DNA of 32,000 bases from the NCBI RefSeq assembly GCF_000022265.1, contig NC_011979.1:2820001-2852000 (forward strand). The letters are read 5' to 3'. Positions 4,954-23,947 of the stretch are shown one piece after another (the stretch's first letter is position 1; each line of letters opens with the position of its first letter). A program made the translations under genes and the position numbers. Under the pieces are notes generated by a model. It was not told the origin of the DNA. It ran no database searches and was given only the letters and a program-made list of their open reading frames with translations. The stretch is from Geotalea daltonii FRC-32. Lineage in GTDB: Bacteria > Desulfobacterota > Desulfuromonadia > Geobacterales > Geobacteraceae.

Positions 4954-5970
<1,017 letters not shown>

Positions 5971-5973
5971 CGA

Positions 5974-6084
5974 ACGCTTTTGGGCCATTTCGGCGTTGCC
6001 TTCGTCATCGCTTGTGCGACGTGGCGTTGCCACGCCTCCGCGCTCTTCCTCGGCGCCGCCGAACTGACTCCAAAATCGTTCGCC
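5974..6084. repeat. ~110-nt imperfect palindromic intergenic element, copy A (nifH-nifD spacer)
   Basis: Shares a near-identical core with 7687-7792, including the identical 34-mer GGCGTTGCCTTCGTCATCGCTTGTGCGACGTGGC and GCCACGCCTCCGCGCTCTTCCTCGGCGCC. The outer arms CGCTTTTGGGCCATTTCGGCG / CGCCGAACTGACTCCAAAATCG are mutually complementary. Confidence 0.8.
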
Positions 6085-6233: not shown

Positions 6234-7673
6234 ATGTCAGATGCGATAACGAAAATAGAAGGCATTACCAAAGAGTCGACCCAGTCCATGATCGACGAAG
6301 CACTTGAAATTTATCCCGAAAAAGCGAAGAAAAAACGGGCTCCACATTTGGCTCCCAATGCCGGTGAAGGCGCTTGCGTAAAATCCAACCGCAAAACGGT
6401 TCCCGGAATCATGAGCGCCCGGGGGTGTGCCTACGCAGGCGCCAAGGGGGTTGTCTGGGGGCCGATCCGCGATATGGTCCATGTTTCACATGGACCGGTC
6501 GGTTGCGGCTGGTACTCGTGGGGAACCCGGCGTAACCTCATGACCGGCATCAACGGGGTCAACCAGTTCGCCATGCAGTTTACCTCCGATTTTCAGGAAA
6601 AGGATATCGTCTACGGGGGGGACAAAAAACTGAAGCAGCTGCTGGTTGAGGCGAAGGAACTTTTCCCGCTGGCCAAGGGCATTTCCGTCCTTTCCGAATG
6701 CCCCGTCGGCCTCATCGGCGACGATATCAACGCCGTGGCAAAGCAGTCGGCCAAGGAACTGGACATCCCGATCATCCCCTGCAACTGCGAGGGGTTCCGC
6801 GGTGTTTCCCAGTCCCTGGGGCACCATATCAGCAACGACACCATTCGCGACCACATCATCGGTACCAGAGAGTTTGCCGAGCCTGAAACCCCTTACGACA
6901 TCGCCCTTATCGGCGATTACAACATCGGCGGCGACGTCTGGTCGGTAAAGCCGCTGCTGGAAGAAATCGGCCTCAACGTCAAGTCGGTCTGGACCGGCGA
7001 CGGCGAACTGGAGAAGATCGCCGCCACCCATAGGGTGAAATTGAATCTGATCCACTGTTACCGCTCCATGAACTACATGTGCCGGGTCATGGAAGAGAAA
7101 TACGGCATTCCCTGGCTGGAGTTCAACTTCTTCGGTCCGACCAAGATCAGGGAGAGCCTGCGGAAGATTGCCGACTTTTTTGACGACACTATCAAGGAGA
7201 AGGTAGAAGCGGCCATTGCCAAGTATGATCCTTTGATGCAGGCGGTCATCGACGAATACCGTCCCCGCCTGGAAGGAAAGAAGGTGATGCTCTATGTGGG
7301 CGGTCTCCGTCCCCGGCACACGGTCAACGCCTATGCCGATCTGGGGATGACGGTCGTGGGAAGCGGCTACGAGTTTGCCCATGGCGACGACTATGAGCGA
7401 ACATCTCCAGAAATGCCCGAAGCGACTGTCATTTACGATGACGCCTCCGAACACGAACTGGAGGAATTCGTCCATAAGCTTCGTCCCGACCTTGTGGGAA
7501 GCGGCATCAAGGAAAAGTACCTGTTCCAGAAGATGGGCATTCCGTTCCGCCAGATGCACAGCTGGGATTACTCTGGTCCCTATCATGCCTATAATGGCTT
7601 TCCGATCTTTGCCAGGGATGTGGATATGGCGATTAATAGTCCAACGTGGTCACTGGTCAAGGCACCTTTCTAG
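6234..7673 (+). CDS. nifD: nitrogenase MoFe protein alpha chain NifD
   Basis: Typical NifD sequence ([50 protein letters not shown]). Length 479 aa, located between nifH and nifK. Confidence 0.97.
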
Positions 7674-7686
7674 CTTAAAACGGCGC

Positions 7687-7792
7687 CCGCTTTTCGGCCA
7701 GATTGGCGTTGCCTTCGTCATCGCTTGTGCGACGTGGCTCTGCCACGCCTCCGCGCTCTTCCTCGGCGCCACCAATCTGACTCGAAAATCGG
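7687..7792. repeat. ~105-nt imperfect palindromic intergenic element, copy B (nifD-nifK spacer)
   Basis: Aligns almost base-for-base with 5974-6084. A related half-element in inverted orientation (CGCGGAGGCGTAC-atcg-GTACGCCGCACAAGG) lies at ~7905-7937 in the same spacer. Confidence 0.8.
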
Positions 7793-7997
7793 ACGCCGGC
7801 AGGTTTTACACATACACGACCCTGGACAGATTCGTCCGGGTTAAAAAAATCTGGTTTAGTGGGGAATGCGATTTTTTCGATGAGAACAAGGAAGGCAAAC
7901 AGCGACGCGGAGGCGTACATCGGTACGCCGCACAAGGAGCTGTGAGGCCTGACGCAGTTATCGCGGAAAGGGCGCATTCCCCTAAGGAGAAACTACT

Positions 7998-17985: not shown

Positions 17986-18075
17986 AGGGTGTGGAATCAA
18001 GGGTGATTGGTTATTGGTGATTGCTAACTCCTAACCTAGAACCTCGAACCTCGAACCTCGAAAGTTGGTTTGGCT

Positions 18076-18873
18076 ATGGAAAATACTTCTTTTAATCACT
18101 GCAATCTCCCTCCCTGGGTCATTGCCTCCCGCCATTTCAACGATAACCCGCAGCCGCTGGAAATTCAGGGGGTCAGGCAGGCCAACCGCTTTCTTTTCGA
18201 GAAGCTGGAGGCTCTCCCTTCTCCCGAGGAACGGGCGCTGGTCTTCAACGACTACATGTCGGTGAAGTTCCAGCTCCACCAGTGGCAGAGCCAGTCCACG
18301 GACACTGCCAGGAAAAGCATCAAGAACAGCTACCTCCGCTTTTTGCGGGGCTGGATGATGGACTCCAATTCCGTGGAAGGAGCGGTGCTCAAGGGCTGGG
18401 TGGAGAGCCGCATGGGACTTCCCCCCACCTTCCACAAGATACGCATTCCCGGTATCCATGGGGAAGAGTACATGATCTTCGCCATGGACAGGACCAGGGG
18501 AAGTGCCCGCACCAATGCCATCAATTCCCAGCTTGATCTTCTCTACGAGTACGGCCAGTACGAACTGGCAAGGCGCTACCCGGAAAAGCGCCTGCTCACA
18601 CTCTACCGGGGCACCTTCGATGCCGGCGAACATGACGTGCTGGAAAATATGGGCAAACGGCAGCAGCTGGTGCGCCTCAACAATCTTTCATCGTTCACTT
18701 CGGAGGAAGAGCGGGCCTGGGAGTTCGGTTTCACGGTCTGGGAGGTGCAGGTGCCGCTCTCCAAGGTGTTTTTCTACAATGACCTGCTTCCAAACAGCAT
18801 AATGAAAGGAGAGGGGGAATACATGGTGATCGGCGGGGAGTATCAGGTGCGGGTGGTGCCGTGTACGGTGTGA
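18076..18873 (+). CDS. draT: NAD+--dinitrogen-reductase ADP-ribosyltransferase DraT
   Basis: The N-terminus NLPPWVIASRHFNDNPQPLEIQGVR and the overall ~265 aa layout resemble DraT as I remember it. nif context and a convergent draG support the call. The first ATG is at 18076; the track start at 18070 is TTG. Confidence 0.75.
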   Translation: MENTSFNHCNLPPWVIASRHFNDNPQPLEIQGVRQANRFLFEKLEALPSPEERALVFNDYMSVKFQLHQWQSQSTDTARKSIKNSYLRFLRGWMMDSNSVEGAVLKGWVESRMGLPPTFHKIRIPGIHGEEYMIFAMDRTRGSARTNAINSQLDLLYEYGQYELARRYPEKRLLTLYRGTFDAGEHDVLENMGKRQQLVRLNNLSSFTSEEERAWEFGFTVWEVQVPLSKVFFYNDLLPNSIMKGEGEYMVIGGEYQVRVVPCTV

Positions 18874-19039
18874 GGCCAATGCCGAATTTGAAGCGGTCCA
18901 AGGTTATTTTGGCAGCGATGGGTGTGCTAGGACTCCATCTGCAACCGTTTTGATTTTAATCGATTTCATATTTATCTTTCACGTCGTGGGGGCGCACCGG
19001 CGGAGCGAAGCGGAGACCGTGTGCCGCCATCTTGTCGAG

Positions 19040-19591
19040 CTATTTTATCTTTTGAATGTCAACATATACAAAAGCACTCTTAGGAAGGCTTCTTCCAAAA
19101 TCCAGCCGTACTTTCTGACGGGATACTGTCCACACATAATTCTTAAAATGCTTATAGTGATGAAACCGTAAAGTACCATAGTACAGTTCCGTGTCACCAA
19201 TCGAATAGCTACCCCCGTACCGGCTCTTCAAAAACCTGATTAGCGGCATTACAACCCTATCTTCAGCATTTCGCCCGAATATGGTGCACTTATAGAGTTT
19301 GTCTTCTGGGTCAACATAGAAGCGTATATCGTATTTCTGCCCGCCAATGTTCACATCATCGATAGTGACAGTTTCGTCTTGTATCGGACGATATGCGTCA
19401 TTTGTTTCTTTGCCTTTATGTAACTTTCGATTTGGGAATGTTTTTTTAACGGCTTTCAGAGTGTCCTTATAACTCAGATCGTAAGGAATTTGTCTGAATA
19501 GAAGCTCTTTGCACAGAGCATGCTTAGGGAGCGATAACAACAACAAGACTAAGAATCCTAATTTCTTCACTTGAGTCCTACCTATTGGCAT
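19040..19591 (-). CDS. hypothetical secreted protein (island gene 3)
   Basis: AT-rich ORF with a hydrophobic N-terminal signal (KKLGFLVLLLLSLPKHALC). The start is either ATG 19591 or GTG 19570 (preceded by AGGA). I recognise no family. Confidence 0.5.
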   Translation of the reverse strand: MPIGRTQVKKLGFLVLLLLSLPKHALCKELLFRQIPYDLSYKDTLKAVKKTFPNRKLHKGKETNDAYRPIQDETVTIDDVNIGGQKYDIRFYVDPEDKLYKCTIFGRNAEDRVVMPLIRFLKSRYGGSYSIGDTELYYGTLRFHHYKHFKNYVWTVSRQKVRLDFGRSLPKSAFVYVDIQKIK

Positions 19592-19648
19592 TCCTGTTAT
19601 TTGCTCAACGGGCCGGGAGATCACCTGACTGGCGTTCGGCCAGGTGGA

Positions 19649-19714
19649 GGGAAGAATATGTGTCAGAGGGAAGAATATGTGTCAGGTCTAAGGGAAGAAT
19701 ATGTGTCAGGTCTA
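19649..19714. repeat. three direct copies of GGGAAGAATATGTGTCAG (copies 2 and 3 extended to a 24-bp unit with GTCTA)
   Basis: Exact 18-mers at 19649-19666, 19668-19685 and 19692-19709, in the spacer between the KAP gene and island gene 3. Confidence 0.95.
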
Positions 19715-19751
19715 CACCTTGACACTAATTTAATCCTTTTCTGTCAAGGTG
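19715..19751. repeat. perfect 10-bp inverted repeat CACCTTGACA-N17-TGTCAAGGTG
   Basis: Arms at 19715-19724 and 19742-19751, immediately next to the triple direct repeat. Each arm contains TTGACA. Confidence 0.9.
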
Positions 19752-19820
19752 AGCCGATATGCCGATGCCCCGGCATCCTGCCGCTTGGATTAGAGCTCCG
19801 TCCCGCTCCTGGGTTATGTG

Positions 19821-21961
19821 TCACCAATCTTCACGTTCAGATGCATCTACCGTGTAATACTCCTTGCCTGTTCTAATGCTTTGATAAATGGCTCGTAATG
19901 CCATGTCGCCCACTCCGGCCTCAATCCGCTCTTCGGCTCGTAAACGCAGCTTATCAATGTCGCCGATTGAGGCAAGCCACCTCTCTTCAATGCGGATAAA
20001 TCCGCCTTTGGTACTGTCTTGGCCATAGCCCCTGAAAACCTGAACAAAAGAATCTAGATCGGCATCATCTATTAATAGCGGTCCAACGAGTGCTGGCAAT
20101 TCTTCATGTGCTAGATTTAGCATCATGAAAAAGATGTGAGATTTATCACTAGCAGTTAGGAAGGATTTGGTTCTAAAGGCTTCAGAGGTTATAGTAATCC
20201 ATCTTTCGCTTAATTCTCTAAGCTCGTCTGAAGCAACCCATCTCTCAGTTTCAGGCAATTCCTTTTCCTTGGAAATAATTCCATGTTGTCGTATAACTTC
20301 ACTAATAATATGTGATGTAAGCGATATTATCTGTTCCTCATCTACTAACTTGAAAATCATATTTTTACGTTCTTCTGCGCTTAGTTCTGAAAGAACCTTC
20401 TTTGCAACCCACCAGCACTGTCTAATTGGTCCAGCTGCAAGCATTTGTCTGGGCTTACTTTCTATCTCTTTTGTCACATCCAATTCGATTATTCTTCCTA
20501 TTGTTACAAGAAAGTTTAATGGATCTACAGGATTCAGTTGTTCGTTGCCTTGTCGCATCAACTCAATAAAACGTTCGATAGTATCGGTTCTTTCATAGAA
20601 CTTAAGAATTTCATCTCGTTCATTTGGCAATTGAATAAACCTATTCACATCCTTTGTTGAGACCTCCTCAGATGGCAATCCATAGGTTATTGCAATCAGT
20701 AAACGGTCATTGGAAGCGATTCTTCCCTCTTTCGAATACTGCGATTGACTTAAATGTCCAAATTGTGACCCTTCGATAAGAGGGAAAAGGGTTTTCAATA
20801 GCTCGTTTATGTAGCCCCTTTCAGATGGATCTATTTTCTCGATCTCCTTCCTTCTATCCTCTTCAAATTTTTTTATATACTCCTCAGGCTTTTCAAGGGT
20901 GTAATCGACCTCAGGGGGTATTCCTGTATAGGCACCTGGATTAGATACAATGTGTTCATAGATTGAAGGAGCTTTTATAGCTAGAGCCTCAAGCCCAAAC
21001 AAGTCAGAAAACGCTACCTCACCTCTTATAGCTTTCTCTAAAAAATAAAGCCTATTGAAAATTCTTTTAATTTCTCTTGGTGATTGAATTATTGGCTTTA
21101 CACAAAGATGATAGACTTCAGTAAGTCGATCTTGATCAGTACTGAAATGTTCTGTGAGATTGACATCAGCAAGATTTGCTAATTCCTCTGTGGCTAACTT
21201 ATGAAGGTCGACCTTGCTAATCTTAGGTAAGTTGAGGCGGACCTGAATGATTTTGTCTAAATATTTGTCTGCATCTTTTATGTTGTGTGAAATCAATGCT
21301 TCTTCGACGTACTTTCTCTCAAAAGCAAGCATGAACAGAGTTCGAGGAAACTCTGAAACTGCCTTTACAGCTCGAATCATTTGAAATACTTCATCGGGCG
21401 GCAATCGGTCTAAATCATCGATGAACACAATGATTGGTCGTTTCAATTCCTTTAAAGCACCGATTACCGACTCTTTACGTTTTTCGATGCTCAGTTCTTT
21501 TAGCTTTCCTATTTTGCTAGCAGCAGTTCCAAAACCTTTTCAACTAAAGACGCCCATGGCTCGGCACCGGGTACCCATTTTAGAACCGTAAAAATCTGAG
21601 AATATGCAAGTAATTGTTTAGCAGCATCTTGTGTTTCTTTTGCTCTGTCAGATGTGCCTATAGCTGATGCAAATTGTACTAAGAACTCTTGTACTAGATT
21701 GCTGGCGTTACCAACAAGCCATGGATTAAAGTCAAAAATTATCGGATTATTCGATGAGTCTGCCCTAAGTTCTTTTTTTATAAGATTTATCGTCGATGAT
21801 TTTCCATATCCCCATTTGCCCTCGATCGATATGACTACGCCTGCCGATTCCTGTGACAAAACGAGTGAATTCGCTATGCGAGTTGAGTATTCGGATCTGT
21901 TCAGCCGATCTGGTGTTTCATGATCTCCATTAATCGGCAAGTCTGAATGAAAGGACTTCAT
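19821..21961 (-). pseudogene. KAP-family P-loop NTPase split by a single frameshift (N-fragment 21509-21961, C-fragment 19821-21539)
   Basis: Walker A GKWGYGKSS lies in the 150-aa ORF and Walker B PIIVFIDDLDRL in the 541-aa ORF. The downstream frame stays open up to 21539 (KGFGTAASKIGKLKELSIEKRKESVIGALKELKRPIIVF), so the two frames overlap at 21512-21539, where A4/T4 runs occur. Confidence 0.75.
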
Positions 21962-22087
21962 TGATTCTACCTCGCTTCCTCATATAAGGTGGGAGAACTG
22001 ACCTGCCGCCTTTGCTTCTAGGCCGGTCCAGCGCTTTGTTGTACATCGTTCACGAGTTCTTGATAAGGTGAAAAACGACGAGTTGAC

Positions 22088-22486
22088 TCAATTCTTTTTT
22101 ATCTTTGCGGAGCCGTGACCTATATGATCTTTGAGAGATTCTTCACAGTGATGAACCAATTCACCATTCTCTGGATTAACTACGACTTCTCTATATTTGT
22201 CATTATCTTTGTCTATATTTCTTTCCTTTTTCATCCACTTACTGTCAGATGCTCTGATCTCATCTCCTACAAAGAATTCACGTCGTGGATTTTTCTTAGA
22301 AGGGAAGTTTTTATCTTTGACTTTTCCCTTTAACGCCTCGTGGAGTTCTAATTTTTCGCAGATAACAAGCTTGACTGTACGAGCGATAGAACCGCATGAG
22401 GCGCAAGGATCTGGCAGAGAATCTATTGGCCCTTCTCCTTTGTTTATAAGCATGCCACAATTAGAGCAAACTACTTCTCTTGACAT
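22088..22486 (-). CDS. hypothetical zinc-ribbon protein (island gene 1)
   Basis: ATG 22486 with SD GGAGGT 8 nt upstream. The N-terminus is CSNCG...x18...CASCG (CxxC-CxxC), followed by a Lys/Asp-rich tail. AT-rich; I recognise no family. Confidence 0.55.
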   Translation of the reverse strand: MSREVVCSNCGMLINKGEGPIDSLPDPCASCGSIARTVKLVICEKLELHEALKGKVKDKNFPSKKNPRREFFVGDEIRASDSKWMKKERNIDKDNDKYREVVVNPENGELVHHCEESLKDHIGHGSAKIKKN

Positions 22487-22808
22487 TACACTCGACCTCC
22501 ATCTTTTAATTTTTGTGTACAACAAATTATTGACAGTTAGAGATGAAGCATCTACAGCTTTTCCTCAAACCCACCTTACAGATGCCGGGCGCCTGCAGCA
22601 GCACCACCATCACTACACCAAATATTTGCCCAACTCAATGGGAAAAATTAAAAAACGAGGCACAGTAATCCCCAAAACGCAAAAGGCCCAGGAGCATGCT
22701 CCCAGGCTTTTCCTAAATCATCAGGCGCGACTCAATCTTGCGCCGTAATATTGGGGGCCGGTCTCCGCGTTCAGCTGCCATCCAGCGTATGCCGGATGGA
22801 AACTAGAC

Positions 22809-23708
22809 TTACGGTAAATTGACAGCCGATGATAGCCGCACCAGGCGCCCGGCAAGCATCGTCGCTTCCTCCATGACCTTCCTGTCCAGCTTCCTCAGCC
22901 ACCGCCGCGGGATGTTCTCCATACCGTAATAGGCGCCGGCCAGCATGCCCATGATGGCGCCGGTGGTATCCGCATCTCCCCCCTGGTTAACCGTGCTCAC
23001 CAGGCATTCTTCGAAATTACTCCCCCGGAAAAAGTGGTGAAAGACGGTCTGCATCGTATCGACCACGTAGCCGGTGGCGAGGCCTTTGTATGGATCGAAG
23101 CGAAAAGCGGGGTGGGCCGCGATCAGTGCATCCACCTCTTTGCGCAGGCGGGACTTGGAGTACCCGCAGACGGCGTGGGAAACCATTCTGCCCAGGCAGA
23201 TGCAGGCCGAGTCGGAGAGAGGATGGTTGTGGGTGAGATGGGCCTGGGCCACCACCTGTCTTTCCAGTTCCCCATCATTTCCCAAATTTGCCAGAACCAC
23301 CGGCAGGATGCGCATCACGGCGCCGTTACCGGCATCCCACTGGTTGAAGGGGGTTTCCAGAGTCCCTTTCAGCATGTAGTTCCTGATTCCCTTGCGGCAG
23401 GTGTCCCCCACATCTATGGGCCTGGATTTCAGCCAGGCGGCGAAGTTGTCGGCGACGGCCCTTAGAGACATGCCACCTTCCGCAACCATGGCCCTGGCAA
23501 TGCAGAGGGTCATCTCCGTATCGTCGGTAACCTGTCCGGCCTTGAGGCGCAGCCATCCGCCACCGACCAGGTCTTTGAGAAGCCCATATTTGGCTTTGAT
23601 CTCTCCGGTGGTCATGAATTCTACCGGCGCGCCCAGGGCATCTCCAATGGCAAGTCCCATAAAAGCAGCCTGGCTTCGGGAAAGGATTTCCCGCAGCTGG
23701 GCATTCAT
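22809..23708 (-). CDS. draG: ADP-ribosyl-[dinitrogen reductase] glycohydrolase DraG
   Basis: ADP-ribosylglycohydrolase family signature (AFMGLAIGDALGAPVEF, GGDADTTGAIMGMLAGAYYG). Length ~299 aa from ATG 23708. nif/draT context. Confidence 0.8.
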   Translation of the reverse strand: MNAQLREILSRSQAAFMGLAIGDALGAPVEFMTTGEIKAKYGLLKDLVGGGWLRLKAGQVTDDTEMTLCIARAMVAEGGMSLRAVADNFAAWLKSRPIDVGDTCRKGIRNYMLKGTLETPFNQWDAGNGAVMRILPVVLANLGNDGELERQVVAQAHLTHNHPLSDSACICLGRMVSHAVCGYSKSRLRKEVDALIAAHPAFRFDPYKGLATGYVVDTMQTVFHHFFRGSNFEECLVSTVNQGGDADTTGAIMGMLAGAYYGMENIPRRWLRKLDRKVMEEATMLAGRLVRLSSAVNLP

Positions 23709-23947
23709 GAACAGCTGCAACCGGTGCAGGAGCCGGTGCAGATTTTCAATTGTCTCTCCTCCGGGGCAGCAGCCTGCCAACGGGCCACCGATTCACTGGT
23801 GACGAGCCATTCCCCTTCGCTCAGTCTTCCTGTCAGGGATTTATTCCTCATCAACATCAACACCTGCACGTTGGTCGTACCCAATCTGTCTGCCGCTTCT
23901 TCGGCAGTGATGAAGGAAGTTTCGTCGATTATCTTTGCCATGATCAT
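23705..23947 (-). CDS. small helix-turn-helix (excisionase/MerR-like) protein translationally coupled to draG
   Basis: SD GGGAGGA precedes ATG 23947/23941. ITAEEAADRLGTTNVQVLMLMRNKSL resembles the excisionase-type HTH. Its stop overlaps the draG start (ATGA at 23705-23708). The long N-terminal extension in the track ORF is rejected. Confidence 0.45.
   Translation of the reverse strand: MIMAKIIDETSFITAEEAADRLGTTNVQVLMLMRNKSLTGRLSEGEWLVTSESVARWQAAAPEERQLKICTGSCTGCSCS

Follow-up and report, generated by a model that had tools for sequence, protein, structure and literature searches.

The DNA analyzed here is a 32-kb window of Geotalea daltonii FRC-32 (32,000 nucleotides; RefSeq assembly GCF_000022265.1, contig NC_011979.1, positions 2,820,001 to 2,852,000 of the forward strand), and coordinates are positions in this window unless another locus is named. 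The convergent genes draT and draG, which form the nitrogenase switch, are kept apart in this strain by a 3.9-kb island with three genes, all on the (-) strand, that encode a zinc-ribbon (Zn-ribbon) protein, a KAP-family P-loop NTPase, and a secreted protein. The island is probably, at odds that we put near 80%, a small, decaying array of integron cassettes with a truncated attI and no integrase, that is, a group of clustered attC sites without an integron integrase (CALIN), located in the draT-draG spacer. On sequence comparison its only recognizable cargo is a pseudogenized member of the known PifA family.

Both genes that border the island are intact. draT (18070-18873, (+) strand) matches Pfam DRAT at 1e-116, and draG (22809-23780, (-) strand) matches Pfam ADP_ribosyl_GH at 1e-69. 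The interval between them (18874-22808) is 42.1% GC and its cassette part (18983-22522) is 41.4% GC, compared to 56.7% and 56.2% in the flanking DNA. A first-pass annotation of this DNA had described an AT-rich foreign island here and had put its GC content at 35-40% by eye. The 3.9-kb island and its step from 42% GC to flanks of 56-57% are confirmed; 300-nt windows do fall to a minimum of 35%, and the mean is higher, at ~41%. Three genes on the (-) strand were also correctly recognized, although the KAP gene is split into two open reading frames (ORFs) with an ancestral length of 716 aa, not ~690, and the secreted protein has 176 residues, not ~185. The statement that the island lacks an integrase, a transposase, and a tRNA stands. 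No tRNA gene and no Rfam family was found within the window, and no phage, transposase, or conjugation gene within the island. A tblastn search with an IntI probe sequence detected no integron-integrase-like sequence in the window; the same query picks up the true, NCBIfam-confirmed IntI of locus L037. The features of the island are collected in Table 1.

Table 1 Features of the draT-draG interval, in window coordinates. The arrow marks the crossover point.
Feature	Coordinates	Strand	Details
draT-proximal flank, after the last cassette	18874..18982	(-)	Common to SG265 (88% identity); missing from G. toluenoxydans
attC3, pseudo-attC of the secreted-protein cassette	18976..19040	(-)	R'' GCTCGAC 19040-19034; core GGCGGCACACGGTCTCCGCTTCGCTCCGCCGGTGCGCC
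Cassette 3 ORF, protein with N-terminal signal peptide, Geob_2586	19040..19570	(-)	176 aa
attC2 region of the KAP cassette	19603..19819	(-)	R'' ACATAAC 19819-19813; R' GTTGAGC 19609-19603
Cassette 2 ORF, PifA-like KAP P-loop NTPase, pseudogene	19821..21961	(-)	Assigned by Pfam, PADLOC, and hhalign
attC1, pseudo-attC of the Zn-ribbon cassette	21982..22044	(-)	R'' GTACAAC 22044-22038; R' CTTATAT 21988-21982
Cassette 1 ORF, Zn-ribbon protein Geob_2588	22088..22486	(-)	132 aa; function unassigned by libraries
attI-like site, start of the array	22517..22557	(-)	CTGTAGATGC-ttcatc-TCTAACTGTCAATA-attt-G↓TTGTAC; crossover between 22523 and 22522
draG-proximal flank, including the draG intrinsic terminator 22707-22686	22558..22808	(-)	Common to SG265; missing from G. 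toluenoxydans

Recombination sites and cassette boundaries

The attI-like site at the head of the island has the same architecture as sites that head arrays in the closest relative, Geotalea sp. SG265 (L006; DraT 94% identical), in L002/L003, and in L037. The L037 site lies ~1 kb from an integron integrase gene (TIGR02249, 335 bits at a cut-off of 265), and the attI regions of L006 and L002 are alike at E 1.6e-14. These similarities suggest that the FRC-32 site is an attI of the L037-type integrase clade. The sites in SG265 and L002/L003 are preceded by several palindromic CATCTAC..GTAGATG repeats; the FRC-32 site is without the upstream repeats that SG265 has, most of them having been lost. 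The site adjoins draG, not intI, and the arrangement of a complete integron is not found here. Blastn and tblastx searches of the draG-side flank (22500-22830) detected no remnant of intI and no small attI-adjacent ORF. Such an ORF is conserved directly upstream of the attI-like site in L002 (3134-3424, 96 aa) and L037 (18928-19335, 135 aa), where it lies between intI and attI. The two products are 52% identical and have no family match, and the arrays are otherwise unrelated.

Integron attC sites share the consensus RYYYAAC ... GTTRRRY around an imperfect palindrome, with crossover at G↓TT. The window contains three co-oriented attC-type sites, each following an ORF, that are recognized by their homology to sites of other arrays and by the cassette boundaries; their R boxes are mutated. 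attC1 resembles, by eye rather than by formal alignment, the attC located after the Zn-ribbon homologues of L002 and L005, and its crossover G is replaced by C. attC2 is abnormally long at 217 nt, and its R'' is conserved with the KAP cassettes of L001/L091. Matches to the attC3 core are present in attC sites that flank cassettes in L001 (two sites), L091/L092/L100, L171, and L172. The attC family GGCGGCACACGGTCT.CGCTTCGCT..GCCGGTGCGCC follows the secreted-protein ORF in L172 and L171 and is present in the window at 19021-18992.

The cassette boundaries are the same in unrelated surroundings. The start of the KAP cassette, TTAT(G/A)TGA(A/G)GAA.., is common to the window, L001, and L091, is preceded by (G/C), and opens a similarity that extends to ACATAAC. 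The L001 and L091 cassettes share sequence from G↓TTATGTGAAGAAACG to ...TGACACATAAC-attC-G↓TT, and the window copy starts at C↓TTATATGAGGAAGCG. In L001, as in L091/L092/L100, attC sites lie on both sides of the KAP ORF, whose upstream and downstream neighbors differ between the two contexts. In one locus the KAP cassette adjoins an IntI relic. Homology between the window and L172 in the secreted-protein cassette begins exactly at G↓TTGAGC (19609). The same ORF-plus-attC units are found with other neighbors in other arrays: KAP in L001 and L091, the secreted protein in L172 and L171, and the Zn-ribbon protein in L002 and L005. A strict attC scan, which demands AAC..GTT, R-box complementarity, and an end-to-end hairpin, missed several obvious attC sites and serves only as a conservative counter. 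It placed a hairpin directly downstream of the KAP homologue in at least 11 of 72 loci, compared to 5 of 360 shuffled controls.

The block of direct and inverted repeats that the first-pass annotation placed between the second and third genes is present. It consists of three perfect 18-nt direct repeats, TGACACATATTCTTCCCT, at 19648-19665, 19667-19684, and 19691-19708 (start spacing 24 and 19 nt), and a short inverted repeat, GTGTCA..TGACAC. A search of all fetched loci and of viral contigs found neither the 18-nt repeat nor the whole 19603-19825 segment. In three independent short-read runs, all of the recovered contigs stop or start at precisely 19722, immediately ahead of the repeats, which suggests a graph branch or copy-number variation.

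Several properties of the sites weigh against an integron origin. The R' box of attC1 starts with CTT, the R'' box of attC3 ends in GAC where its homologue (GCTCAAC) has AAC, and the R' position of attC3 reads GTGAAAG (18982-18976), with GTG in place of the GTT of GTTRRRY. Bottom-strand folding compared to shuffled sequences gave z scores of +0.89 for attC3, -0.22 for attC1, and -0.10 for attC2, with the R boxes unpaired, whereas related intact attC sites in L171, L002, L006, and L001 pair R'' with R' and have z scores of -0.6 to -4.2. attC2 is 217 nt long and contains the direct repeats, and past its R'' it departs from the attC found with the closest KAP cassette. Under a standard attC covariance model, only part of the window sites might be called, or none. 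Covariance modeling gave no usable result: three MAFFT alignments of curated sites misaligned their ends or centers, and RNAalifold returned no consensus pairs. The strict scan flagged only two nif intergenic hairpins in the window. Recognition of the attC sites thus draws on sequence homology, cassette boundaries, and our own heuristic scan. The failure of the window sites to fold fits pseudo-attC sites, that is, decay.

The array may have formed as follows. Three promoterless cassettes would stand head-to-tail on the (-) strand behind the attI-like site, each made up of one ORF and then an attC. An integron integrase encoded elsewhere would have captured them singly at the G↓TT of attI or attC, after the attI site came to lie between draT and draG in the ancestor that G. 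daltonii and SG265 have in common. Cassettes could then have been excised and inserted to give each species a different set, and in FRC-32 the sites and the PifA-like gene would have decayed later. With mutated R boxes in their attC sites, the cassettes are probably no longer mobile. No sigma-70-like promoter was found ahead of the first cassette, and a terminator-like hairpin (22707-22686) lies 3' of draG. The decayed attC and attI sites, the lack of a promoter, the terminator after draG, and the KAP frameshift described below point to an immobile and probably silent relic. The island thereby illustrates the decay of such an array, in which R boxes have mutated, attI has been truncated, and a cargo gene has been frameshifted.

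The cargo genes

The KAP gene of FRC-32 is carried in two ORFs, 21961-21509 (150 aa, with the Walker A motif GKWGYGKSS) and 21446-19821 (541 aa, with the Walker B motif IVFIDDLDRL). The repaired protein matches Pfam KAP_NTPase (PF07693) at 1.3e-48 and PADLOC PifA at 1e-78, in an alignment that spans residues 2-678 and profile positions 3-698 of 720. A profile of 29 KAP family members was compared by hhalign to F-plasmid PifA, whose sequence was taken from an annotated IncF plasmid, and gave 99.9% probability, E 5.8e-32, and 627 collinear columns. Plain tblastn of the KAP protein against PifA aligned only residues 18-336, at 25.6%. The partial PADLOC matches to QatA (5.7e-17) and PDC-S20 (4e-19) fall far short of the one to PifA. 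These profile comparisons identify the KAP protein as a distant (~21% identity) full-length homologue of PifA, and its earlier assignment to a conflict-associated NTPase family was correct. Its description as part of an uncharacterized system was not, since protection against phages by single-gene KAP NTPases of the PifA type was recently demonstrated (PMC13552941). The F-plasmid PifA excludes phage T7 (Schmitt, Kemp and Molineux 1991, as cited in PMC13552941). An intact PifA-like protein would be predicted to carry out single-protein, NTP-dependent phage exclusion (abortive infection); by analogy with F PifA it would act alone, sense a phage component, and abort the infection.

Alignment with an intact 716-aa homologue (89% identical) localizes the lesion that splits the gene. 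Ten nucleotides, ATATTTAAAG, are missing at ~21537 between two AAAG motifs, at the junction of GTTGAAAAG and GTTTT (21544-21531). The deletion drops Ile-Phe-Lys and is followed by 8 codons out of frame and a premature TAG at 21511-21509. Three independent Illumina (Logan) assemblies contain the identical 150-aa truncated ORF, which shows that the lesion is real and not a reference error; contigs from two of the three match the window with 100% identity across as much as 8.8 kb. The FRC-32 entry is annotated as a 'LOW QUALITY PROTEIN' KAP NTPase. Among the KAP homologues listed (at least 120), every one except the FRC-32 copy is annotated as a single ORF of ~715 aa or as a fragment at a contig end. 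A 1-nt loss in the A-run GCAAAATAGG was considered as the cause of the frameshift and rejected, since the alignment with the 89% homologue puts the 10-nt deletion further upstream. A -1 slippage at GCAAAATAGG was dropped once that deletion had been located.

The Zn-ribbon protein is 100% identical to Geob_2588. It has two Cys pairs (C7xxC10...C28xxC31), a beta-rich domain, and a conserved C-terminal PLS-H-GHGSAK motif; the Cys quartet is invariant in its family, which comprises 1363 cluster representatives (E<=1e-3), nearly all ~130 aa long and unannotated. Its AlphaFold2 (AF2) model is all-beta with a predicted local distance difference test (pLDDT) score of 93 and has no structure match in PDB or BFVD at E<=0.001. 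A large family whose model is confident but matches no known fold may merit separate study. The neighbors of the family vary, and the closest relatives of the FRC-32 protein lie in arrays without a KAP gene. Viral contigs contain the family at just 4 loci, with no neighbor in common. The Zn-ribbon homologue in L002 is preceded by a 313-aa gene, of which tblastn found no remnant in the window.

The start of the secreted protein is most likely the GTG at 19570, as in the NCBI entry Geob_2586 and in both of its homologues, and the stop is at 19040. Just two relatives were found among 5.8 billion proteins (90% and 66% identity), in L172 and L171, and both are single cassettes bounded by attC sites. 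Its AF2 model is poor (pLDDT 62). The model has a weak likeness to the periplasmic lipoprotein DcrB, on which we do not rely, and gave no significant PDB structure match, a result to be read with the poor quality of the model in mind. Neither the Zn-ribbon nor the secreted protein matches a family in Pfam, PADLOC, NCBIfam, or PHROGs. PADLOC, one of the searches that the first-pass annotation had proposed for the locus, names one of the three genes, KAP as PifA.

Spacer history and competing explanations

The draT-draG spacer was compared among 80 draT loci from species-representative genomes, 33 of which have a convergent draG within 10 kb. The spacer is ~0-150 bp long in 17 of these 33, and it is 24 bp long in G. 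toluenoxydans, in agreement with the earlier view that the DNA of the island is foreign. It exceeds 1 kb in 8 relatives and, apart from SG265, these spacers have host GC content and ordinary genes. The gene types found in spacers elsewhere include a methyl-accepting chemotaxis protein, a subtilase, SulP with MarR, CorA, a metallophosphoesterase, and a protein of beta-lactamase fold. The draT-draG spacer is a recurrent insertion-tolerant spot, whatever the mechanism. The ordinary genes in L007, L013, L017, L020, L032, L050, and L084 occupy 1-7 kb, belong to other Geobacteraceae, and were gained independently.

In SG265 both flanks of the island and the attI core are shared with FRC-32. Blastn aligns window 18700-18982 with L006 10631-10913, the common sequence beginning at GTGAAAGATAAA, and window 22548-23000 with L006 12781-13223 at 89%. 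The cargo between these junctions differs. In SG265 it is 39% GC and consists of a 361-aa ORF, an attC (z -4.2), and a second small unit. The two junctions have thus stayed fixed while the cassettes between them diverged. The 361-aa protein of SG265 (L006 11537-12622, (-) strand) has C-terminal membrane helices and matches PHROG 9373, a family of unknown function, at 2e-70.

A broader proposal, which we hold tentatively and at well under even odds, is that the draT-draG locus in the lineage of G. daltonii and SG265 is, or was until recently, an 'orphan' integron platform. An attI with palindromic GTAGATGC-type repeats, without an integrase in cis, would be served by one acting in trans, and turnover of its cassettes would have continued once the two species had separated. 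In L002, next to hydrogenase genes, this attI type likewise stands at the head of an array that has no integrase. If the proposal is true, integrons of the Desulfuromonadales can seed satellite attI arrays around the chromosome. An attI type common to integrase-less arrays may merit separate study.

The first-pass annotation had proposed that the Zn-ribbon, KAP, and secreted proteins form one uncharacterized, co-functioning defense or conflict module. The genes are co-oriented and close together in an AT-rich foreign island, and the KAP NTPase comes from a defense family. Conservation of the neighborhood is absent, an outcome that the annotation had itself named as refuting. None of the 81 KAP-homologue loci searched by tblastn (80 metagenome loci and L001) has a Zn-ribbon or secreted-protein relative. 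When the flanking ORFs were clustered no recurrent partner emerged, as no family occurs in more than 6 loci, and those are near-identical contigs. The closest homologues of the three genes are all in different neighborhoods. Upstream of the closest KAP homologue (L001) is a PtuA/PtuB-like pair, and downstream of it are small genes of unrelated kinds. The arrays of the Zn-ribbon homologues (L002, L005) run in one orientation, are rich in toxin-antitoxin pairs (MazE/PIN and HigB/A-type), and have many well-formed attC sites. The genes of the island are moreover separated by attC-type sites, and KAP proteins of the PifA type work as single genes (PMC13552941). We consider a common function of the three genes very improbable, and an appealing new defense system gives way to a testable and mostly ordinary explanation. 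Adjacency inside integron arrays is accidental, and operon logic should not be applied to it when defense systems are mined.

It is also unlikely that the island is a generic horizontal insertion, whether a remnant of a phage, an integrative and conjugative element (ICE), or a transposon, or an import by transformation and recombination, with attC-like sequences that are incidental and no integron recombination. The unfolded window attC sites with their mutated R boxes, the lack of an integrase inside the 32-kb window, and the uptake of ordinary genes by this spacer in other lineages all agree with such an insertion. It does not account for cassette boundaries at G↓TT in several independent contexts, for an attI-like site common to an array next to a true IntI, or for the other cassettes, one with an intact attC, that SG265 has between the same junctions; nor does the island contain phage, transposase, or conjugation genes. 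A different objection concerns decay. The array would still be functional if the cell obtained the PifA-like protein through ribosomal slippage at A-AAA-TAG, or in the form of two interacting polypeptides, and was protected by it. Were tRNA-Lys to slip by -1 on GCA-AAA-TAG, the downstream frame would be restored, and the lesion is stable across the three assemblies. The lesion is, however, a deletion of 10 nt with AAAG microhomology on its flanks, and neither a slippery site nor a stimulator is conserved; the other homologues among the at least 120 listed are annotated as single ORFs of ~715 aa or contig-end fragments; and Walker A and Walker B lie on separate fragments. We give a functional array hardly any credence. 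A decaying, integrase-less cassette array accommodates the boundaries, the attI-like site, and the SG265 junctions, and it remains the preferred reading.

The insertion had also been described as splitting the two genes that switch nitrogenase off and on. It does lie between them. The separation is probably without consequence for the switch, because draT and draG are convergent and separately transcribed in all relatives and both ORFs are intact.

Related systems and minor observations

CALINs and IntI-mediated genomic insertion have been described (10.1101/2022.09.11.507474, Loot et al.; PMC4889954, Cury et al. 2016), and integrons are common in a subclade of the Geobacteraceae (PMC11434368). 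The island resembles CALINs and sedentary chromosomal arrays in its co-oriented, promoterless units of an ORF and a putative attC, the lack of a nearby integrase, its small size, and a GC content below that of the host. Its cassettes, like theirs, occur singly in other arrays, with boundaries at G↓TT. It differs in keeping a truncated attI-like site at its head, in having mutated and unfolded attC sites of which attC2 is overlong, and in its location inside the nif regulon between draT and draG. A literature search found no published integron annotation of strain FRC-32.

The KAP gene is collinear with PifA of the F plasmid over ~630 columns, including the C-terminal region, and shares its single-gene architecture. 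The FRC-32 protein differs in being only ~21% identical; its gene lacks an upstream pifC repressor gene, is borne by an integron cassette instead of a plasmid operon, and is broken by the 10-nt deletion. QatA of the Qat system and PDC-S20 have the KAP NTPase core in common with it. The island lacks the QatB, QatC, and QatD partner genes, and the matches to QatA are partial.

Mobile integrons encode phage defense systems, the bacteriophage resistance integron cassettes (BRiCs) (10.1101/2024.07.02.601719). The FRC-32 KAP gene is likewise a compact, predicted defense gene in cassette form, and related arrays carry the PtuA/PtuB-like pair (L001) and toxin-antitoxin pairs (L002). Unlike the BRiC arrays, that of FRC-32 is a chromosomal, integrase-less relic in an environmental bacterium of the Desulfuromonadales. 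The main text of that paper does not mention PifA or KAP. Among anaerobic sediment bacteria, PifA-like KAP NTPases are in circulation as integron cassettes, and the picture of integrons as defense biobanks thereby extends beyond Vibrio and clinical mobile integrons.

Two further elements were seen in the loci fetched for comparison. The cassette beside the closest KAP homologue (L001 91-2480) codes for a PtuA-like ATPase of the AAA_15/AAA_21 type (1e-13), together with a 285-aa protein that overlaps it and has weak HNH-type matches, and it is possibly a Septu-like two-gene defense cassette. Directly after the first attC of the complete integron in L037 (~18250-18000, (-) strand), a stretch starts with GTGCGCCCAG... 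and goes on as structured, GC-rich sequence; it resembles the 5' end of a group II intron that has inserted into an attC.

The window also contains two paralogous long hairpin elements on the (+) strand, at 5969-6084 and 7675-7809, in the spacers after ORFs 5101-5970 and 6234-7673. Judged by position, these spacers are probably nifH-nifD and nifD-nifK. The hairpins have no Rfam match. They share a core of ~60 nt (GGCGTTGCCTTCGTCATCGCTTGTGCGACGTGGC..TGCCACGCCTCCGCGCTCTTCCTCGGCGCC), their outer stems differ yet stay complementary, and their RNA folds have z scores of -3.4 and -3.2. They could be repetitive extragenic palindrome (REP)-like or mRNA-stabilizing elements within the operon.

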